A DNA stretch of 60,230 nt from Endomicrobiales bacterium (GCA_023228045.1 JALOBY010000007.1:1-60230), one strand, 5' to 3'. Shown: positions 3,001 through 56,880, counted from the stretch's first letter. Notes: generated from the letters alone by a model not told the origin. Translations and numbers: made by a program.

Positions 3001-4830
3001 AACCACTTGGTGATGCCGGCAATGTAAGCACATTTGCAACACTGCTGTATCCCGGTGAAACAACAAGTTCATTATTTATTGCGCCAACTCTATAGGCATA
3101 GTATGTATCGGCACTTAAACTGGTATCGCTATAACTCGTGCCGGTAACACTTGCAACAAATACACTATCTCTTTCAAGGCGATACGAATTTGCCCCAGTA
3201 TTCGCCCAGCTAAGTGTAATTGAACTTACATTAACGGCGTTAACACTTACCGATGAAGGTATAATTGCATAAGTGTATTTAGCATCACTGTTTGATGCAC
3301 CTGATATTCCACTTATGTTACCTGCTTTTACATATCTTGTGTATTGTGTGTTGCTGCTTAAACCAACTTCAAGCCATTGTGTCACACCCTCTACATTTCC
3401 AACTTTACTGTCATCAGTGCCATTGTATATCGCATAGTATGTTGCATTCGCACTTAATGTCCAACTCCATTGTATTGACCCCGTGCTTTGTACTGCTCCA
3501 CTAAATGAGCCTGGCGCAGCTGGCGGAGCGGTGTTTATTGTAATATCAATACCTAAACTATTAAATTGTGATGCTACAGGAACAGAATCTGCGTAAATGC
3601 TGTAATATTCGTTTGAATCTAACCGACCATTTTCGTTTACATCAACAAAAGCAGTCACTTTATAAAAACTATATGGTGTTGAAACCCTTAACGAGTAATC
3701 CCATGCCGGTGTGTTTGGAGTGCTTTCAGTAACATTATAAGGGCTTGCACCGCCAAAAGAAGGAGATGCAATTACAACAATGTTGCCTATTTGTTCAGAG
3801 TTGTTGGTTATATGTCCGCTTATAGCGCCAAAATCAAATAAAGAGAAATCCACATTTGAAGCAGTATGTGATGATGCGCTTAAATATATTGGCGTTGCAT
3901 TCCACCAATTTGACGCTTGCCTAAAATAACCTATCGGCTCATAGCCGTCCGGCACATCATTATCATTTTCATCAATCAGCGCCATAACATAGAAAGTATT
4001 TGGAAGCGACAAATTGCTAAAACTATAATACCCTGCACCAGTGAAAGAAGTTATAGGCGTTACAAAACTCATAACACCATTATCGCCGATAGCGCTTGCT
4101 ATAGCAACTTTATATACGCCGCCAACAAAAGAGCCATTGTAACTCATAATACCGGATATTGTTCCGGAAGTTATCGGCAATGCCTCAGAAGCACAGGCAC
4201 TTGAGATATTTGAAACTGCAGACCAATTACTCACTTCATCCGCGTTCCAAATTGCAAAATAATATGTTACACCCGAAGTAAGCGGGCCGACAATTTGCGA
4301 AACCACATCGCCCGACGTAACATTTGAAGTTGAAACGGTTATTTGCGCAAGCGGATAATTCCAGCCAGAGAGTGAGTCCCCACTTGCCACTGTGGCATAT
4401 TGCACTTTATATTGTGACCCTACCGGCAAACTTCCAAACATTCCATCGTCACCGGGAGCACCCCATGAAAGTTTAACATTGCCACCGAGTGTATCTGCCG
4501 TTCTTGCCACAAGTGTAGTAACCGCCGCTGGAGCTATTGTATCACCAAGCAAAATATAGGCAGAACTCATTGCGGATGTATTTGACCAACAATCAACATT
4601 TTCATCTCTTGTCCAAAGCTTAAAGTAATAGGTAGTATTGCCGCTAAGCGCACTACTGCTAAGTGTAACGCTTTGAGAATCTCCCGGGTTAATTGAACTG
4701 GTTGTTACAATTATAATCTGCGCAGAAGCAGTGCTCCATACAACGCCCTGACTTTGCGAATATTGCAAGGCAAACACACTACCAGCTTGCAATTGGTTTA
4801 ACATACCATCATCACCCGGTGCCCCAGGAC
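1..4830 (-). CDS. Giant cell-surface protein, C-terminal continuation, partial (runs off window start). It is the same gene as 4812..8615 read in the +1 frame. It contains FN3-like repeats with a WQWNHG..GYNLY motif, a parallel beta-helix-like region, and more FN3 repeats.
   Basis: I translated the minus-strand frame by hand and it stays open from ~4830 to the window edge. FN3 domain motifs recur throughout. The frame is open across the upstream stop codon and re-creates the domain motif SW-APGDDGM at the junction. The ORF track lists no such ORF, presumably because there is no stop inside the window. Confidence 0.7.
2250..3270 (-). repeat. Tandem duplication of two ~510 bp units (~170 codons each) inside the giant gene, encoding near-identical FN3 domain pairs.
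   Basis: The strings ttcaatgtaagccgtaac / ttcaatgtaggctgttac and ccactgccattttattgtgtctg recur at an offset of ~508-510 bp. The translated units KYTYAIIPSSVSVNAVNVSS...GTDTIKWQWNHG.TYVSGYNLY are ~90% identical. Confidence 0.8.
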
Positions 4831-49853: not shown

Positions 49854-51083
49854 TCAAAGATAAACTATATTTTCATTATGATAAAGCGAGAGAAATAATA
49901 GCAAGTATTCCTTCAGATGCCGTGTTATAAGAAAATTATTTCTTATATGTTCTTTGCCATTCTGCCCAAGTTTTTTGGCATATTCAGGATTATTCAAAAA
50001 CTGTTTTACGGCAAATGCCATACCTTCCGTTGAATAACTTAAAAGACCGGAAAACTTGTGAGTTATTTGAAGCGGTATCCCGCCGACATTTGACGCAACA
50101 ACAGGTTTCCCCTTCCAAAGAGCTTCTGTAACAGTCAGCCCAAACCCTTCCCTGACCGACTTTTGAAGAATTACCGATGACGCTCTTTGTATAGCATTAA
50201 CCGCAATATCATCCTGGGGAAGAAGCAACAGATGTATGTCCGGGTCATTTCCTGCTTTTTCTTTTACTTCTTCAAAAACTTGTACCCCTTCAGGGTCATC
50301 CGCGGCAAGCCCACCAGCCAAAATTAATCGGCAATCCACATATTTTTTGACGAGTTTGTAAACTTCAATTACCCCTATTGGATCTTTGAGCCGGTCAAAC
50401 CGGGAAAGTTGGGCTATAATCGGCTTATCTTGGGGAACATCATATTTTTGAAGAACGGCATTAATTTCATGCTGCTCAAGCTCTTTATTCTTGTCACTTA
50501 ACGGATCTATTGAAGGAGCAATAAGAAATTGCCTAATCGGAAGTTTATGCGAATATTTTGGCGAAGAAAAAACCGAGGCATCATATTTTTGAATATAGTC
50601 CAAAAGAAAATCCCATACTTTCATATCAGGTTGAGAAACATCTACATGGCATCGCCATATCCACTTATTTCCTTTCTTTTTTTTGATAAGGCCTATCGGT
50701 TGAGGATCATGGACAAATACTATATCACCTATGATTTCAAATTCCCGCGCATTTTTTTCATTAGTTTCAGCAAATATCTCAAAATCTCTTTCCTTTAATT
50801 TAGCATCTTTTCCGTGCAGTGCATTATGAAATTTCTTTGTTACTTCAAAAAACTGTTCCCCTCCCTTTATTACATCCCAGCGAGAATTTACTCCTAAATC
50901 CAATAACAAAGGTACCATTCGGTTAAGTATCTCGGCAACACCTCCACCAACCGCAGCAGAATTAAAGTGCTGTATAAGCTTCCCTTTAAGTTTTTGGGCG
51001 AGCAAATGCAAGTCATCAATGTTGACCTGGCCGACAATTGGTATATAATCATTTATTTTCGGCATTTTACACCGCCTTTTCAA
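49854..51083 (-). CDS. treT: Trehalose glycosyltransferring synthase (GT4).
   Basis: The N-terminal region NSAAVGGGVAEILNRMVPLL ... RWDVIKGGEQFFEVTKKFHNALHG closely resembles archaeal TreT. 409 aa. Confidence 0.7.
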   Translation of the reverse strand: MKRRCKMPKINDYIPIVGQVNIDDLHLLAQKLKGKLIQHFNSAAVGGGVAEILNRMVPLLLDLGVNSRWDVIKGGEQFFEVTKKFHNALHGKDAKLKERDFEIFAETNEKNAREFEIIGDIVFVHDPQPIGLIKKKKGNKWIWRCHVDVSQPDMKVWDFLLDYIQKYDASVFSSPKYSHKLPIRQFLIAPSIDPLSDKNKELEQHEINAVLQKYDVPQDKPIIAQLSRFDRLKDPIGVIEVYKLVKKYVDCRLILAGGLAADDPEGVQVFEEVKEKAGNDPDIHLLLLPQDDIAVNAIQRASSVILQKSVREGFGLTVTEALWKGKPVVASNVGGIPLQITHKFSGLLSYSTEGMAFAVKQFLNNPEYAKKLGQNGKEHIRNNFLITRHLKEYLLLFLSLYHNENIVYL

Positions 51084-51726
51084 CTAATTTAATTACAATT
51101 TTTCTTAAATCTTCCATGGCAAAGGTGTAAGGATCAATATTTGAAATTGCGCTGGCAAGTTCTTTGTTTCCTAACGACATTTCAACCCACCTAGAAAAAT
51201 CGTTGCTTTCATTTTCAAGCCGCAGACGCGATTCAAATATATGAAAGTATAAAGAATTTATTGAGATTTTTTTTAATGCTTCACAAAACTCATTTAGGTT
51301 ATTTACAACATAGGGAGTGCGAATAATAAAACTAGTAGATTTGACAAAGTAAAATATTTTATTGCTTTTAACTACTCTGTTCGCTGTTGTTGTGTTTTGG
51401 TTAATATATTTTTCAACTCTTGAAATTATTTCTTCTCTCAATTCCCGTATAGTGCTAAATTGAACAATATCAATAGAAGCAACACTTTCCGCAAGTTCAT
51501 CTTCGCCAAGGGCATCACGCACCCAATAAGCAAAATCATTTGGAGGTTCCGGAGAATAAAATTGGTGCTGCTGTAAAAAACGGTGAGTATGATGATAAAT
51601 GCTTGAGCCCGGAACAATTTTTAGCATCTCAAGCAACTCATTTAGTGTCTCAGCTTTTAGGCCAGTTGCCTCAGATAAATGCAATCGGGTATAGAATTGA
51701 AATGAATTTTTTGCTTTTTTGCCCAT
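51067..51726 (-). CDS. Uncharacterized protein made of two internally duplicated ~90 aa units, embedded in the trehalose operon.
   Basis: 219 aa. Repeated pattern NDFA.WV..ALG.[DN]ELA..[VI]..ID ... LR..I. Overlaps treT by 17 nt and abuts otsB. Confidence 0.5.
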   Translation of the reverse strand: MGKKAKNSFQFYTRLHLSEATGLKAETLNELLEMLKIVPGSSIYHHTHRFLQQHQFYSPEPPNDFAYWVRDALGEDELAESVASIDIVQFSTIRELREEIISRVEKYINQNTTTANRVVKSNKIFYFVKSTSFIIRTPYVVNNLNEFCEALKKISINSLYFHIFESRLRLENESNDFSRWVEMSLGNKELASAISNIDPYTFAMEDLRKIVIKLVEKAV

Positions 51727-51727
51727 T

Positions 51728-52516
51728 TCATTTACTCCTTATTGCAACCATTTTTAGAAACTCTAAAACTTGACTGACATTTTTTAGCGCGTATTTGGCA
51801 GAAGAATTTTTTTTGTATCCAACCCGCACCGTTAAACCATTTTTTTTAAGAGCACTAAAGGCCGATTCATCGGTGCGATCGTCGCCAATATAAACAGGAA
51901 TTATTTTTTTACCGGAATACATAATTTTGTATTTTTTCACTAACCACAGCGCGGCTTTCCCCTTATCCCATGCTACATTTGGCCTTATTTCAATAACCTT
52001 TTTCCCATAATGAATTTTAATTAACTGTTTTTGCACTGCCTTTGAAACAATGTCTTTTATTATTTTTTTTATTGCAGAAACATTTTTTTTATCTACCAAA
52101 CGGTAGTGAACACTCAATGTAAAACCTTTGTTTTCAAAAATTACACCCTTTTTACCAATAACCGCAGTTTCCATTTCCTGCGCGATATCTTGTATTTTTT
52201 TTTGCATTGGCGCATTTAGCATAGAGTTAAATTTAAAATGCGGTGTCGTAATTTCTAAACCGTGGTTACCCACATAAATTGCTTTTTTAATATTTATTAC
52301 TTTACTTATTTGCTCACGGGCTCTTCCGCTTATTACAGAGAAAATTACTCTCTGAGATTTGGCTACAGAAGACAGAATTTTTTTTGTTGACTCGGGCAAT
52401 ATAGCAAGTTCAGGCTTTGGATATATTGGAACTATTGTTCCATCATAATCAAGCATCAATAAAATAATATTATCGGAAAGTTTTTCAACAAGATACTCTG
52501 GCGTAATTTGGCGCAT
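51728..52516 (-). CDS. otsB: Trehalose-6-phosphate phosphatase (HAD family).
   Basis: HAD motif I LDYDGTIVP. 262 aa. Immediately downstream of otsA. Confidence 0.8.
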   Translation of the reverse strand: MRQITPEYLVEKLSDNIILLMLDYDGTIVPIYPKPELAILPESTKKILSSVAKSQRVIFSVISGRAREQISKVINIKKAIYVGNHGLEITTPHFKFNSMLNAPMQKKIQDIAQEMETAVIGKKGVIFENKGFTLSVHYRLVDKKNVSAIKKIIKDIVSKAVQKQLIKIHYGKKVIEIRPNVAWDKGKAALWLVKKYKIMYSGKKIIPVYIGDDRTDESAFSALKKNGLTVRVGYKKNSSAKYALKNVSQVLEFLKMVAIRSK

Positions 52517-52517
52517 T

Positions 52518-54812
52518 TTATTCCTTTTTTAATGAAATCAGGTCAGAAATAATTGTTCCTGCCCATTTATATACATTATTGTTTTCAATTATAGAACGCA
52601 TTGCTTTCATGCGTTTTTCTTTTTCTTCTTGAGGCATTTCTACCGCAAGTTTGAATGCTTCGGCAAACTCTTCAATTGAATATGGGTTTATAAGAATTGC
52701 ATCAGTAAGTTCCCTTGACGCGCCGGCAAACTCTGAAAGTATAAGCGTTCCATTTAAATCATTTTTTGCGGCAACATATTCTTTGGCAACAAGGTTCATA
52801 CCATCGTGCAACGAACTTACAACACAAATATCGGCAAGCTGATAATATGGTTTAATTTCTTCACTTGAAAAATGCTGTTTAAAGTAAATTATCGGCTTCC
52901 ACGAGTTTTCGGAGTGTTTCCAGTTTATTTTTTCAACCAATTCATCTATTTCGGCTATCAAATCGTGATATTTTTTTATTTGAGTTCTGCTTGGAGCCGC
53001 CAACTGAACTAAAACAAACTTGCCTTTATATTGAGGATATTTTTCAAGAAATCTGTCTATGGCAAGCATTCGCTCAGCAAGGCCTTTTGTGTAATCTATT
53101 CTTTCAACACCAAGGGCAACAATTTTACCTTCCAGGTTTAACTCACTTATTATTTTTTCTTTTTGACTGGTAATTGCGCCTGCCAATTTTGGGTCGGCAA
53201 AATTATCAACGCTAATTGGGTACTGCTTAATAAATGTTTCCTTGCCCGAACGCACTACCGAGAATCTTTCGGCATCTACCCTGCTTTCAAGAAAGCGGTT
53301 TGCGGTATCTAAGAAATTGTTGCAATGGTACTGTATATGAAACCCTATAAGGTCGCAACCAAGCATACCATCTAAAATTTCTTTTTGATAAGGGCAAATT
53401 GCGAATACTTCGGGGTTTGGCCATGGTATGTGCCAAAACATTGCAATTTTAGCATCCGGTCTTTTCTTTTTAATCATTCTGGCAAGCAACGTAAAGTGAT
53501 AGTCCTGAATAAAAATAAAAGGCGCGCTTTTTGGCAGTTCTTCAATAATAGAGTCCGCAAACTTTTGATTTACTTTCTTATACATCTGCCAGTCAGATTC
53601 ACGGAAAGTAGGGCGATTGTGCGTTATATGGCATAACGGCCACAAACCTTCATTAGAGAAACCAAAATAATACCCCTTCTCTTCTTCTTTTGATAGCCAG
53701 ATTCTTTTGAGAATGTAATGGATATCGTTTGGCGGGACACCAAGTTTATCTCTGGAATTTACAAATTGTTTGTCGGCATTGCCGCTTCCATGAGCTATCC
53801 ACATACCGCCGCAAGAGCGCATAACAGGGTCAAGCGCCGTAACAACACCGCTTGCAGGGCTTACACACTTTGCTTTACCTTTGTGTTCATCGGAAACATG
53901 CATATAAGGTTCCCTGTTTGAAACAACAAAGAGAGAATCTTCGCCAAGTTTCGCATTAACTAAATCTTTAAGTTTTGACGGCGTCCACTTTTTTTCATCT
54001 TTAATTCGTTCTTTCGCGCTTTCTGACACAGATTTTCGCGCAATTCGTAAGTTTAATGCAACCTGTTCTATTTCACTGGCAAATTTACCCAGTTCATCGG
54101 TATATTTATAATTAAGATTCTCGTCGGTTTCACCTTTATAAAATTTTTGCAGCCAAAAGGTAATTCTTCTAACCGGCAATAGAAATATCTGCCTTTGAAG
54201 CACAATTATAATTATAGAGATTAAACTTATTAAAAAAATAAGCCCTATACTCATCTTTTTCCAAAAAACAACAAGAAGCTCATTTACATAAGAAACATCA
54301 TACACAACCTCAACAACTCCCAAAAACTGGCCACTTTCATCAGTAACCGGCAATGCATAAGTATATAGATTATATTTGCCGTAATTATTAAAACCTTCAT
54401 ATACTTTCTTTTCAGAAAATATTTTTTTAACATAAGATTTTTCTTCTTTTATCCAATTAGATAATCTTTCGGTAAAAGCAAATATATTTCCATCCTTTGT
54501 ATAAAAAATCCCACCCTGAAACCGCTCTCTCTTCTGAAATGTACCGACCAGCTTCTGGGCAGTCTTTTTGTCTTTAGATTCCAACACACTGCCCGCTGAA
54601 ACCTCAATACTTTCAGCCACATTTTTGGTTTTTCTTTTTATATCGTCAATGAGTTTTTCTTTTTGAAACTCAATCTGGAAAAACCCGGCAATAATAAAGC
54701 CGGCAGTAATGACTATCAGTATGGGTAATAAGAATATCAGAATTTTTTTCATTACATCCCCTTTTAATATAAATGCCACTTTATGGCTTTTGTCAAACAG
54801 CAACCCGACCAT
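52518..54812 (-). CDS. otsA: Trehalose-6-phosphate synthase (GT20) fused to an N-terminal membrane sensor module (TM, Cache-like periplasmic domain, TM, HAMP-like linker). The likely true start is the Met at 54752 (MKKILIF), which has an AAAAGGGG ribosome-binding site.
   Basis: The C-terminal ~480 aa align to OtsA (LFVVSNREP ... HDYH-like IQDYHF ... GFHIQYH). The N-terminal 250 aa have two hydrophobic helices that flank a ~145 aa domain. Confidence 0.75.
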   Translation of the reverse strand: MVGLLFDKSHKVAFILKGDVMKKILIFLLPILIVITAGFIIAGFFQIEFQKEKLIDDIKRKTKNVAESIEVSAGSVLESKDKKTAQKLVGTFQKRERFQGGIFYTKDGNIFAFTERLSNWIKEEKSYVKKIFSEKKVYEGFNNYGKYNLYTYALPVTDESGQFLGVVEVVYDVSYVNELLVVFWKKMSIGLIFLISLISIIIIVLQRQIFLLPVRRITFWLQKFYKGETDENLNYKYTDELGKFASEIEQVALNLRIARKSVSESAKERIKDEKKWTPSKLKDLVNAKLGEDSLFVVSNREPYMHVSDEHKGKAKCVSPASGVVTALDPVMRSCGGMWIAHGSGNADKQFVNSRDKLGVPPNDIHYILKRIWLSKEEEKGYYFGFSNEGLWPLCHITHNRPTFRESDWQMYKKVNQKFADSIIEELPKSAPFIFIQDYHFTLLARMIKKKRPDAKIAMFWHIPWPNPEVFAICPYQKEILDGMLGCDLIGFHIQYHCNNFLDTANRFLESRVDAERFSVVRSGKETFIKQYPISVDNFADPKLAGAITSQKEKIISELNLEGKIVALGVERIDYTKGLAERMLAIDRFLEKYPQYKGKFVLVQLAAPSRTQIKKYHDLIAEIDELVEKINWKHSENSWKPIIYFKQHFSSEEIKPYYQLADICVVSSLHDGMNLVAKEYVAAKNDLNGTLILSEFAGASRELTDAILINPYSIEEFAEAFKLAVEMPQEEKEKRMKAMRSIIENNNVYKWAGTIISDLISLKKE

Positions 54813-54860
54813 CTAAGTCCTCAGAATGCTTAAAAGCTCTAGAACCCATTGGTTTGCTAT
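54804..54860 (-). promoter_or_regulatory. Conserved ~57 nt upstream motif X, copy 1, 5' of otsA.
   Basis: About 75% identical to 56368-56425 in the same orientation relative to the downstream gene. Confidence 0.45.
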
Positions 54861-54911
54861 ATGTTTAATTATAATTTATTGAATGTTGATATGCGAATAA
54901 ATGCCAAGTAC

Positions 54912-55975
54912 TTATGAAAATATCAGGGAAAAAACAATAAAATAGACAACCATAAAAACAAAACCAATCGGCAACCCTATTTTCGCCCATTCCCAACTTG
55001 TTATCTTAAGCCTTCCTGCAGAAATTATATTTGGAATATTCCCGGGAATAAGCATTCCACCTGATATCAAAAACCCTATAAGTATATACTTAATTTGAGG
55101 CAAATTCATTTTAGGGCTTATTTCTGCAGCAGCCAAAGTTGCATTGTCTAAAACAGCCGAAAGAGAATTTATCCAGTAAAGTAGCGTAGTCGGAAATTTT
55201 ATTATGTACATATCAACAATAGGTTTGAAGCCGGAACCAAGAAGTATCAAAGCCATGATAAAGATATAAACTTTCCCAGCATAAACAAAAATTTCTTTAA
55301 TATTACTGCTTTTTTCTTCTACTAATCCTTTTATGTTTTCTCCTTTTTTAACAGAAGGGTTTATTATACTGCCTATTATTGCTAAAAGCAAAATGCCCGG
55401 CAAGACATATAGGCCAAGCTCCCTGAATAAGAAAAAGAAATCGGCATTGAATGGCTCTCCTTTTAGCTTTGCTATAGTAATGGTTGATAGCGGTTCTCCT
55501 ATAGGGGTAAGCACTGCGCCCAGCCCAATAGAAAAGCAAGAGAGTACCGTAAGCTTTATTTCATATTTCTTGTCCAATTTTAATGCACTAATAATTTCAA
55601 CAAGTATTATAGCTGCCATAATAGCCGTAATAATACTTGAAAGCAATCCTAAAACCATAATCAACACAAAACAGAATAATTTTGAACCGATTTTACGCTC
55701 TATATTAACGACGGTATTTGTTATTTTATTTCTGAAAAAATAAACTAAAAACCCTATCGTAATAACAGCCAAAGTTATCATTATTGGTTCAACTAATGAT
55801 TCCCTAATAAGGTGCATTGACCACGCCGGTTCTATTCCCCAAAAATGCGAAATACTTACCACTAACACACCCATGATAAAAAGAAATATTTCCAAATTTT
55901 TTTCTATAACATGCAATGTAAGAGGTAAAATTAATACAAGAATAATGGCACTGATCAACCCTATTTCTATCACTA
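54912..55975 (-). CDS. Polytopic membrane protein, transporter-like (possibly the DUF1646 cation-transporter family). It starts at a GTG codon.
   Basis: 353 aa with ~10 predicted TM helices. The first codon is GTG at 55973-55975. Confidence 0.5.
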
Positions 55976-56145
55976 TAAATTTTCCTTGTCCAGCTTTTTC
56001 ATTTCTATTGACTTGCTATTGTCTTTTAATATTCTGCTACAACAGAATATCGCCAAGCTTATAATAGCCGACCAAAACATCAGCATAATTATCCAGCCGC
56101 TAATTTTCACAATAATATTTCAAATGTTTTTGTGTTATGATTCTT

Positions 56146-56268
56146 TTACTTTTTATTTTTATCTTTATCCTTCATAGAGTTTTTTCTGCTGTTTTGATAA
56201 ACATAAACAATAAACCCGGCAAATATTATCATAACAACAATCACCGGCCAATCTTGCGCAAAATTCAT
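56146..56268 (-). CDS. Small single-TM protein (40 aa, MNFAQDWPVIVVMIIFAGFIVYVYQNSRKNSMKDKDKNKK).
   Basis: GGGAGG lies 10 nt upstream of the ATG. Hydrophobic core followed by a basic tail. Upstream of the transporter gene and below the ORF-track cutoff. Confidence 0.4.
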   Translation of the reverse strand: MNFAQDWPVIVVMIIFAGFIVYVYQNSRKNSMKDKDKNKK

Positions 56269-56298
56269 GTGTTATATACCTCCCTGTTAAAATTAAAA

Positions 56299-56365
56299 GC
56301 CACCCCTGAATTTTTATCCAGTAAGTGGCAATAAAAAACCGCCCACTGGTTATAAACCAGATGGC
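56299..56365 (-). terminator. Two tandem stem-loops with U-tracts on the minus strand (CCGCCATCTGG ... CCAGTGGGCGG-TTTTTT and GCCAC ... GTGGC-TTTTAATTTT), lying between motif X copy 2 and the small ORF.
   Basis: Read directly from the sequence. Confidence 0.5.
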
Positions 56366-56367
56366 GG

Positions 56368-56425
56368 CCCGACCATCCAAATCCTCCGAAAGCATTAAAG
56401 CTTTCGAACCCTGTTGGTTTGCTAT
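56368..56425 (-). promoter_or_regulatory. Conserved upstream motif X, copy 2 (contains the perfect hairpin cgaaagc-attaaa-gctttcg).
   Basis: Alignment with 54804-54860. Confidence 0.45.
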
Positions 56426-56520
56426 TAAGTTATGTGGATTTTACAACTTTTCTCACTAAATGCGCAATCTCTTGAAAATATAAAAATAAGTACTGCAAAG
56501 AGTTTCTAAGCTATATCAGC

Positions 56521-56880
56521 TCATTTTTCATTACAATCCGAAAATTCAAACAACAATGTTATACCCTCTTTTATTCCATATATGTCTACAAGACCAGCTT
56601 TTAACTCAAGCACCGAGCTGGCACTACTTACCGGCATAACTACATGCCATGACTTTAGGTTTTTAACAACCCTTAAGACTTTATATGTTTTATCTAAAAA
56701 AACCACATCTATGTAAAAACGCATAAAAAAAGTGTGTATTGAAGAACACTTTAGTATCAGCAACGCACCACAGAAAAATTCTTGCGGCATAAACATAAGG
56801 CCTAAAAATTTACTAAAAAAAGTTTTCGCAACACAAATTTCAAGTGTACCATTTGGGCAAATTAATTTATTCACGCTCAC
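56521..56880 (-). CDS. DUF192 domain protein.
   Basis: 119 aa. DUF192 pattern (VAKTFFSKFLGLMFMPQ ... HTFFMRFYIDVVFLD ... SVLELKAG). Confidence 0.65.
   Translation of the reverse strand: MSVNKLICPNGTLEICVAKTFFSKFLGLMFMPQEFFCGALLILKCSSIHTFFMRFYIDVVFLDKTYKVLRVVKNLKSWHVVMPVSSASSVLELKAGLVDIYGIKEGITLLFEFSDCNEK

Follow-up and report, generated by a model that had tools for sequence, protein, structure and literature searches.

Why would one short noncoding segment stand twice in the same bacterial locus, once ahead of a predicted cation transporter gene and once ahead of the trehalose synthesis genes? We address this question in a stretch of 60,230 nt from an Endomicrobiales bacterium (GCA_023228045.1 JALOBY010000007.1:1-60230), referred to as the window. 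Every gene in this part of the window is on the minus strand, in the order DUF192 gene, copy 2 of the segment, two hairpins with U-tracts, two small open reading frames (ORFs) called s40 and s45, DUF1646, copy 1 of the segment, otsA, otsB, DUF5752, treT and two tRNA genes. Both copies are found in 5′ leaders, on the coding strand. Our reading, which we consider likely, is that copy 2 acts as a transcriptional ON switch of the nhaA-I riboswitch class (Li+-I/Na+-II) at the head of an operon for a cation transporter and trehalose synthesis, and that copy 1 is a decaying relic.

The two segments can be aligned pairwise over about 58 nt, at 56425-56368 for copy 2 and 54860-54804 for copy 1 (both minus strand). 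The original prediction, made from the window alone, had these coordinates right and put the identity at about 75%; by our own count it is higher, with 48 of the 58 alignment columns identical (about 83%). It also placed the copies on the strand of the downstream genes, 50-150 nt before a start codon, and the distances measured from the end of the repeat to the ATG agree: 100 nt to s40 (ATG at 56268) for copy 2 and 52 nt to otsA (ATG at 54752) for copy 1. The copies are separated by 1.5 kb, in which three ORFs lie.

A dispersed repeat family was considered and rejected, as the 60 kb hold just these two copies by pattern searches and by a covariance scan. The 20-mer ATAGCAAACCAAYRGGGTTC, with up to 3 mismatches allowed, matches only copies 1 and 2 in the window (chance expectation 0.02), and the core GATGGTCGGG likewise has two sites, which are the same two. 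For the covariance scan we used R1, a model built from the elements of 46 relatives with both window copies left out, and ran it on the whole window with filters off. Copy 2 ranks first with 62.1 bits and copy 1 second with 17.8 bits, followed by the next site at 9.6 bits. Numerous copies away from gene starts, which had been named as evidence against a regulatory element, are thus not what we find: the window has two, and the elements of the relatives lie at gene starts.

Family membership of copy 2

Copy 2 belongs to the curated and experimentally validated nhaA-I family. In the search that the original prediction had proposed (cmscan against Rfam), the aptamer of copy 2 (56359-56411, minus strand) matches RF03057 (nhaA-I) over model positions 1-55 of 55 with 52.2 bits, for a gathering score of 37, and copy 1 is left without a match. 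All signature blocks of the family are present: GGGU (56411-56408), helix P1 of 8 bp (56407-56400/56393-56386), AGG (56385-56383), a short linker, and helix P2 (GAUGGU/GCCAUC, 56377-56372/56365-56360) with the loop CGGGCC (56371-56366). P1 is the perfect hairpin UCGAAAGC/GCUUUCGG that had already been noticed in this copy. The minimum free energy (MFE) fold of copy 2 is the consensus fold (-19.8 kcal/mol, z = -2.24), and the leader as a whole folds at -52.3 kcal/mol (z = -5.35).

We found no Rfam family besides nhaA-I in 54700-56560 (1861 nt) at E <= 10, ydaO included, and at the gathering score nhaA-I is the sole riboswitch family matched in the whole window, with neither ydaO nor Na+-I among the matches. 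The suggestion of a c-di-AMP (ydaO) riboswitch is therefore abandoned. The broader reading as a riboswitch or attenuator holds for copy 2, where a full-length nhaA-I aptamer is followed by a terminator and a ribosome-binding site, and fails for copy 1. No promoter of the sigma-70 type was found upstream of copy 2 at the threshold of the scan; TTGCGC and TAAAAT, 18 nt apart, can be read there by eye and fall below it.

The relatives were collected by an OtsA protein scan with one genome per species, which gave 80 loci, nearly all from metagenome-assembled genomes (MAGs) of Candidatus Omnitrophota, with OtsA at 59-71% identity. Covariation is seen at all 8 pairs of P1 in the elements of the 46 relatives, with 95.6% of the cells paired. 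None of 500 shuffles reaches the observed percentage paired, the cells changed on both sides, the further pair types or the covariation score; the count of pairs changed on both sides is less decisive (27 of 500 shuffles). Controls with slid partners are only 39-59% paired. A search for covariation among relatives had been recommended, and P1 supplies it.

These data bear on a different answer to our opening question, namely that the shared motif is a DNA operator bound by a protein regulator of both transcription units, which the original prediction had held equally possible. Similar sequences do stand before two functionally related units, and copy 1 overlaps promoter-like hexamers. Nevertheless, the motif corresponds over its full length to an RNA family, and the helices of that family covary in 46 relatives. 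The similarity also begins near the probable transcription start, not upstream of the promoter. Furthermore, copy 1 drifts at the neutral rate in the nearest strain (see below), and an inspection by eye finds no overall dyad symmetry, the inverted repeats being the arms of P1 and P2 only. Homology to a family of RNA aptamers whose helices covary is enough to account for the similarity, so a shared operator is not needed, and we regard it as extremely unlikely.

Copy 2 thereby gives a concrete leader annotation in an uncultured bacterium whose closest relatives by OtsA are Omnitrophota MAGs.

Terminators of the copy 2 leader and the ion sensed

The expression platform of copy 2 is an intrinsic terminator, T1 (56333-56367, minus strand), with a stem at 56367-56339 that pairs CCGCCAUCUGGUU with AACCAGUGGGCGG and is followed by UUUUUU. 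The T1 region (56380-56326) folds at -21.5 kcal/mol (z = -2.6). Because the 5′ arm of T1 contains GCCAUC, the 3′ arm of P2, the two helices cannot coexist. A similar arrangement of aptamer and terminator is found in about 45 relatives, and nearly all elements share the 3′ arm of P2 with the terminator. By analogy, such an overlap is the layout of a transcriptional ON switch. Both the family membership of copy 2 and the overlap of P2 with T1 are directly supported.

T1 is followed by a second terminator-like hairpin, T2 (56289-56329, minus strand), in which GCCACUUACUGGAU pairs with AUUCAGGGGUGGC (56329-56299) ahead of UUUUAAUUUU. T2 folds at -15.5 kcal/mol (z = -4.29) and resembles T1 in sequence. 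Next come the ribosome-binding site GGGAGG (56284-56279) and s40 (56268-56146), so that each member of the series described earlier, from two stem-loops with U-tracts to a 40-aa ORF, has been located.

The nhaA-I motif has been validated as the Li+-I riboswitch, and the name Na+-II was given to rare variants that bear a terminator and respond to Na+ (White et al. 2022, Sci Rep 12:19145, PMC9646797). In the validated Na+-II riboswitch of D. propionicus, ion binding activates transcription, which makes it an ON switch (PMC9646797). Copy 2 resembles that RNA in the series GGGU, P1, AGG, linker and P2 with loop CGGGCC, and also in an intrinsic terminator that shares the 3′ arm of P2, with ON logic. 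It differs in its host, which looks to be of the Omnitrophota type rather than a Deltaproteobacterium, in its genes (DUF1646 and trehalose genes in place of unnamed hypotheticals) and in the extra hairpin T2.

By analogy with D. propionicus, the leader would work as follows. The nascent copy 2 leader would fold P1 and P2, and a bound monovalent cation would stabilise P2 (GAUGGU/GCCAUC). The stabilised P2 would keep GCCAUC from T1, letting the polymerase proceed into s40, s45 and DUF1646 and, with no strong terminator intervening, probably on into Cache-otsA, otsB, DUF5752 and treT. Without the ion, T1 would form and transcription would end.

The place of T2 in such a scheme depends on how the leader folds. 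In the unconstrained fold of the copy 2 leader both T1 and T2 form. Enforcing P1 and P2 makes the 3′ arm of T1 pair with the 5′ arm of T2 (-15.4 kcal/mol), and both terminators are lost. Based on these models, T2 could act as a fail-safe, or else the 3′ arm of T1, once freed, could capture the 5′ arm of T2. A hairpin like T2 also follows an nhaA-I riboswitch before DUF1646 in one distant relative, L166, where it still forms in the full-length fold with the aptamer enforced; none of the other 16 relatives whose leaders were folded has T2.

A bolder scheme would make the capture a relay: ion-stabilised P2 would free the 3′ arm of T1, which would take up the 5′ arm of T2 and so disable both terminators only when the ion is bound. 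In the same scheme the aptamer would be a hybrid subtype, with a Na+-II-like P1 base and terminator and a Li+-I-like U, widespread in Omnitrophota and coupling direct cation sensing to trehalose synthesis. The constrained fold of the window speaks for the relay, and the constrained fold of L166 and the 16 leaders without T2 speak against it; taken as a whole we find the proposal rather unlikely.

Positions that differ within the class bear on which ion is sensed. The base of P1 reads CC...GG in D. propionicus and UC...GG in copy 2, compared to GC...GC or GU...AC in three validated Li+-I RNAs; in other words, the lower P1 of the Li+-I RNAs has G-C and then C-G or U-A, from which copy 2 differs with U-G and then C-G. 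Most relatives start with C-G. At the nucleotide closing P2, the resemblance is reversed: copy 2 has U (GAUGGU|CGGGCC), as do all 46 relatives, whereas the D. propionicus Na+-II RNA has C (GUUAGC|CGGGCC), so that copy 2 lacks the C of Na+-II. Copy 2 is also like Li+-I in passing the gathering score of the full RF03057 model and in its listed associations (DUF1646, otsA, mscS). Most Li+-I members, however, sit before nhaA and probably control translation (PMC9646797), while copy 2 uses a terminator. Based on these positions, we would describe the aptamers of copy 2 and its relatives as hybrids of Li+-I (P2-closing U) and Na+-II (P1 base and terminator).

Na+-I riboswitches (the DUF1646 motif) regulate DUF1646 together with sodium and osmotic-stress genes and have a consensus similar to that of nhaA-I (PMC9646797); DUF1646 is accordingly a published association of that class too. 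The two are told apart by the lower P1 and the P2 loop (PMC9646797), and the copy 2 site matches nhaA-I only.

Supplementary Table I of the same study lists otsA (16), DUF1646 (4) and mscS (3) among the nhaA-I gene associations, and its authors discuss Na+ sensing by otsA-associated members as a possible osmotic response (PMC9646797). Since the gene content here is trehalose synthesis, MscS and DUF1646, all pointing to osmotic stress, Na+ is the most likely ion for copy 2 and Li+ the alternative. A C54U mutant of the D. propionicus RNA responds to Li+, Na+ and NH4+, and C54 has been linked to Na+ selectivity (PMC9646797).

That study found the terminator-bearing variants only in Deltaproteobacteria (PMC9646797). 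Modestly new with respect to the literature consulted are the frequency of terminator-type nhaA-I riboswitches in Omnitrophota, the combination of a P2-closing U of the Li+-I type with features of the Na+-II type, and a locus with a riboswitch relic and a recurring second terminator. The known mechanism of the nhaA-I class stays unchanged by these findings, and the gene associations of copy 2 had already been published.

Copy 1 and the leader of otsA

Copy 1 (54795-54860, minus strand, with its aptamer part at 54848-54795) looks like a pseudo-riboswitch. It has GGGU (54847-54844), AGG (54821-54819), GAUGGU (54813-54808), the loop CGGGUU (54807-54802) and GCUGUU (54801-54796), and its variant sequence, GGGUUGCUGUU, has a broken P1. 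It has no Rfam match at E <= 10 in the 1861-nt search and does not reach the nhaA-I gathering score. On R1, its 17.8 bits correspond to E = 2.4e-4, with non-standard pairs and two gaps marked in P1. The elements of the relatives score 37-74 bits on this model, save a few degenerate copies at 11-23. Judged by sequence, the score of copy 1 is sufficient to show homology.

The structure is another matter. GGGU, AGG, GAUGGU and CGGG are kept, but the conserved lower P1 cannot pair and the 3′ arm of P2, GCUGUU, pairs only through G-U wobbles. The consensus fold of copy 1 lies between +1.6 and -1.0 kcal/mol, compared to -18.8 +/- 3.0 kcal/mol in the 46 relatives, where it is on average within 0.4 of the MFE. 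The MFE fold of copy 1 is a different one (-11.6 kcal/mol, z = -0.12) that buries GGGU and AGG. Copy 1 departs from the relatives at one invariant and three nearly invariant positions.

The expression platform is similarly reduced. Its remnant (54766-54801, minus strand) has a weak 5-bp hairpin, GCCAUAAAGUGGC (54787-54775), followed by AUUUAUAUU; its match to the terminators of the relatives is a reading by eye. No helix competing with P2 of copy 1 was found, either as a terminator or as a helix sequestering the ribosome-binding site, the sole hairpin (54787-54775) not overlapping P2. The mutated 3′ arm of P2, read as UUGCUGU, is also complementary to AUAGCAA at the 5′ end of copy 1. This pairing was examined as a candidate and discounted: drift from C to U would give rise to it, and the fold of the 108 nt does not stand out (z = -1.74).

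Where does copy 1 come from? Among 59 aptamers its nearest sequence is copy 2, with a score of 36 compared to at most 24 for any relative. The two window copies also share P1-loop residues not seen in relatives, as well as a 5′ extension, AUAGCAAACCAACA (56412-56425, minus strand, in copy 2), which is identical at 12 of 12 positions and is not in the 5′ flanks of the relatives' elements. In copy 2 this extension is probably the start of the transcribed leader. Because of this nearest match and the shared extension and loop residues, we read copy 1 as an intragenomic paralogue or gene-conversion product of copy 2 that has since decayed. The extension was also tried as a conserved extra helix: AUAGCAAACCAA pairs with UGGU of P2 in MFE folds, but it is absent from relatives, so by sequence comparison it is a mark of shared ancestry of the two copies and not a feature of the family.

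To test constraint on copy 1 we used L083, a metagenome contig with an OtsA 98% identical to that of the window (two further contigs, L081 and L082, are 100% identical to the window and uninformative for micro-evolution). Copy 1 differs from L083 by 4 substitutions in 54 nt (7.4%). For comparison, third codon positions of otsA differ by 8.1%, a DUF1646 pseudogene remnant by 8.7% and the remaining spacer by about 2%. Of the four substitutions in copy 1, three affect invariant or nearly invariant positions (the loop C, the third loop G and the C of GCC); the loop UCGGG becomes UUGGA in L083 and the R1 score drops to 5.8 bits. Within this small sample, copy 1 appears to change at the neutral rate, with no sign that purifying selection guards the conserved nucleotides of the aptamer. 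Direct support exists both for this rate and for the inability of copy 1 to take up the aptamer structure, and from the sequence comparison copy 1 is probably non-functional. The original prediction had treated the two copies as equivalent regulators, a view that fails for copy 1 on the model, on the fold, on the missing competing terminator and on the rate of change.

One could argue instead that copy 1 is a functional but divergent riboswitch with altered ligand specificity or mechanism, giving otsA an ion control of its own. Several features fit: the conserved blocks GGGU, AGG, GAUGGU and CGGG are retained, the P2 pairs are all standard or G-U, the loop variant GGGUUG also occurs in the high-scoring L068 aptamer, and a promoter-like site lies directly upstream. 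The aptamer ends 43 nt before the otsA ATG, as in relatives, whose otsA-proximal riboswitches mostly have 41-51 nt, and natural changes of specificity are documented in the nhaA-I family (PMC9646797). Nonetheless, the lower P1 that is highly conserved in relatives is unpairable, the consensus fold lies 10-13 kcal/mol above the MFE, no P2-competing terminator or helix sequestering the ribosome-binding site is present, and the substitution rate equals the neutral rate. In addition, both the loop C and the third G of the loop are changed in L083, near the site of construct M3 (loop CG to UU), whose change abolished the response of the D. propionicus riboswitch (PMC9646797). On balance a working copy 1 is very unlikely.

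The leader of otsA may have other functions. A promoter-like site, TTCGCA and TATAAT with an 18-nt spacer (54897-54868, minus strand), matches 10 of 12 consensus positions just upstream of copy 1, and judging from the hexamers the trehalose genes may have a promoter of their own here. The pair TTGACA (54796-54791) and TATATT (54771-54766) that the original prediction had described as promoter-like for otsA is present, but it lies 3′ of copy 1 with a spacer of 19 nt, and the 10/12 pair upstream of copy 1 is the better one.

In L083 (1522-1922), about 400 nt of unrelated sequence stand in place of about 1.5 kb that comprises copy 2, s40, s45 and 900 nt at the 5′ end of DUF1646, so that only a DUF1646 remnant of 150 nt is left. 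Parts of the replacement are G+C-rich with inverted repeats, for example cccgaggcgaggtctcgcctcggg; it could be an insertion/deletion event or an assembly join. No intact riboswitch was found at the L083 locus, and the TTCGCA/TATAAT site is kept there.

The copy 1 region could now be mainly the promoter and leader of the trehalose operon, with the similarity to copy 2 being historical and the DNA still at work as a promoter through TTCGCA/TATAAT or TTGACA/TATATT. That L083 lacks the DUF1646 module and yet has an intact otsA with unchanged hexamers agrees with this, as do the position of the 10/12 site 8 nt upstream of copy 1 and the difference of just about 2% from L083 in the spacer outside the aptamer remnant. 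The hexamers, however, are consensus matches only: 10 promoter-like sites are found compared to 9.1 expected in shuffled sequence, and the promoter rules of the phylum are not established. Such a role, which is compatible with copy 1 being a relic, has in our view a real chance of being correct, though a little short of even.

The other source of transcripts for the trehalose genes would be copy 2. Between the DUF1646 stop (54912) and copy 1 the scan gave no terminator-like site, the weak hairpin coming only after copy 1. This makes read-through from DUF1646 into otsA plausible, and the trehalose operon probably receives it from the operon controlled by copy 2.

In a census of the 72 Omnitrophota otsA loci with enough upstream sequence, a strong element stands 41-87 nt before otsA in 28 and a weak proximal element in 3; in 17 the element heads a preceding gene such as mscS, and 24 have no element. 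In 10 loci, 14 elements in total exceed the gathering score of nhaA-I in Rfam. Two distal loci, L010 and L068, were checked; their preceding gene of about 1 kb is mscS, which abuts or overlaps the otsA start and lies behind one riboswitch. It is thus normal for a single riboswitch to stand at the head of an operon that unites cation and trehalose genes. Degenerate nhaA-I copies are also found in relatives (L016, L041, L019 at 11966 and L009 at 9684), and riboswitch loss thus recurs in this group.

Copy 1 occupies the site where many relatives carry a working otsA-proximal riboswitch, and it has lost P1, the canonical P2 pairs and the terminator. It probably became redundant once the trehalose genes lay behind a riboswitch-controlled operon, gained a promoter of their own, or both. 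As to the cause of the decay, we infer that selection was relaxed because read-through from copy 2 or the promoter-like site serves the trehalose genes. The relic is a caution against taking each conserved-looking repeat for a regulator.

Several points weigh against our account of a copy 2 ON switch and a copy 1 relic. Ligand binding and termination, like the read-through from DUF1646 into otsA, are what we infer from the locus, and the promoter-like site at 54897-54868 could free otsA from copy 2. The simple ON model would be incomplete if T2 terminates constitutively. The ion is ambiguous, since the P2-closing U is as in Li+-I and the C54U mutant is broadly responsive. The neutral-rate argument counts 4 substitutions only, and all three core changes were derived in the L083 lineage, so that the window copy could be less decayed. 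Copy 1, finally, does keep its four conserved blocks, with every P2 pair standard or G-U.

Operon genes and the loci of relatives

The first gene behind copy 2, s40, encodes a single-pass membrane ORF of 40 aa with a weak FixQ-like Pfam match (E = 9e-4); small ORFs are called at the same place before DUF1646 in L163, L164 and L165. The second, s45 (55973-56110, minus strand), encodes a 45-aa membrane ORF whose end overlaps the start of DUF1646. ORFs like s45 occur in 12 relatives (tblastn, 39-62% identity), most of them directly behind treT; one locus has such an ORF near a DUF1646 gene as well. The DUF1646 protein itself (54912-55973, minus strand; 353 aa; Pfam PF07854, E = 2e-112) is a predicted Na+/H+-type cation transporter.

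The trehalose operon (49854-54752, minus strand) consists by Pfam of Cache-OtsA (54752-52518), OtsB (52516-51728), DUF5752 (51726-51067) and TreT (51083-49854), and the order otsA-otsB-DUF5752-treT is kept in most of the 80 loci. OtsA is a trehalose-6-phosphate synthase (GT20, E = 6e-127) fused to an N-terminal transmembrane segment and a Cache domain. With GT20 OtsA and DUF1646 both found by Pfam, the two targets named in the original prediction, trehalose synthesis and a cation transporter, are borne out. So is its idea of an osmotic-stress regulon, as an nhaA-I riboswitch heads DUF1646 and trehalose genes, which fits osmotic or cation stress. A cation riboswitch ahead of DUF1646 and the whole trehalose pathway supports the published idea that certain variants of nhaA-I link the sensing of ions with the making of a compatible solute.

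The fusion of the transmembrane segment and Cache domain to OtsA is kept at 59-71% identity in about 160 loci (L001-L162), mostly from Omnitrophota. A sensor domain on OtsA suggests a second input into trehalose synthesis, at the protein level. In the gene calls of L081 and L082, OtsA starts at ATG 54812 (764 aa), which is the AUG inside the copy 1 block GAUGGUCGGG. The OtsA homologues of relatives align from ATG 54752 (MKKILIF...), after a GGGG ribosome-binding site, and from this alignment the 20 extra codons (54752-54812) are probably an over-extension. DUF5752 (51067-51726, minus strand) is uncharacterised; most of the 80 genome loci have it with otsB on one side and treT on the other, which ties it tightly to two trehalose pathways.

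DUF1646 was looked for upstream of otsA in relatives and was not found there, the two distal loci checked (L010, L068) having mscS in that place. It normally follows treT, also in the loci of its closest homologues. The position of the DUF1646 module upstream of otsA in the window is, from this comparison of gene orders, a lineage-specific rearrangement. No riboswitch was found before DUF1646 in L163 and L164, and because their module follows treT without one, it is probably part of the trehalose operon in these loci. Most of the closest homologues of the DUF1646 protein (67-70% identity) are metagenome proteins without a name; those with a name come from MAGs labelled Elusimicrobia, while homologues from MAGs labelled Omnitrophota have only about 57-59% identity. 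From this pattern one may suspect horizontal transfer of the module or an inconsistent taxonomy of the MAGs.

Tandem Li+-I-type riboswitches have been noted in environmental sequences (PMC9646797, concluding remarks). Like these, the window has two related aptamers in a cation and osmotic-stress locus, but its copies are 1.5 kb apart and the second is degenerate, so they do not form a cooperative tandem. True tandem nhaA-I aptamers, with starts about 120-145 nt apart, are found in L035 (5187-5382), L114 (2241-2413), and L139 and L155 (779-975), and they agree with the published tandems. Each of the two aptamers in L035 has a separate terminator.

A conserved AU-rich stretch, UUUUAUAAAGAUAAAUUUUAGCCAUAG, follows an nhaA-I-family riboswitch in L009, L027, L035, L066 and L075. 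In L075 (12013-12427) the next gene encodes a 96-aa P-II-like protein (Pfam PF00543, E = 1e-10); a protein of this kind seems to be encoded in L009 and L035 too. The table of gene associations in PMC9646797 does not name P-II. Finally, L164, an Elusimicrobia MAG, has a fluoride riboswitch (4369-4437; RF01734, 46 bits) upstream of a Na_H_Exchanger gene beside DUF1646.

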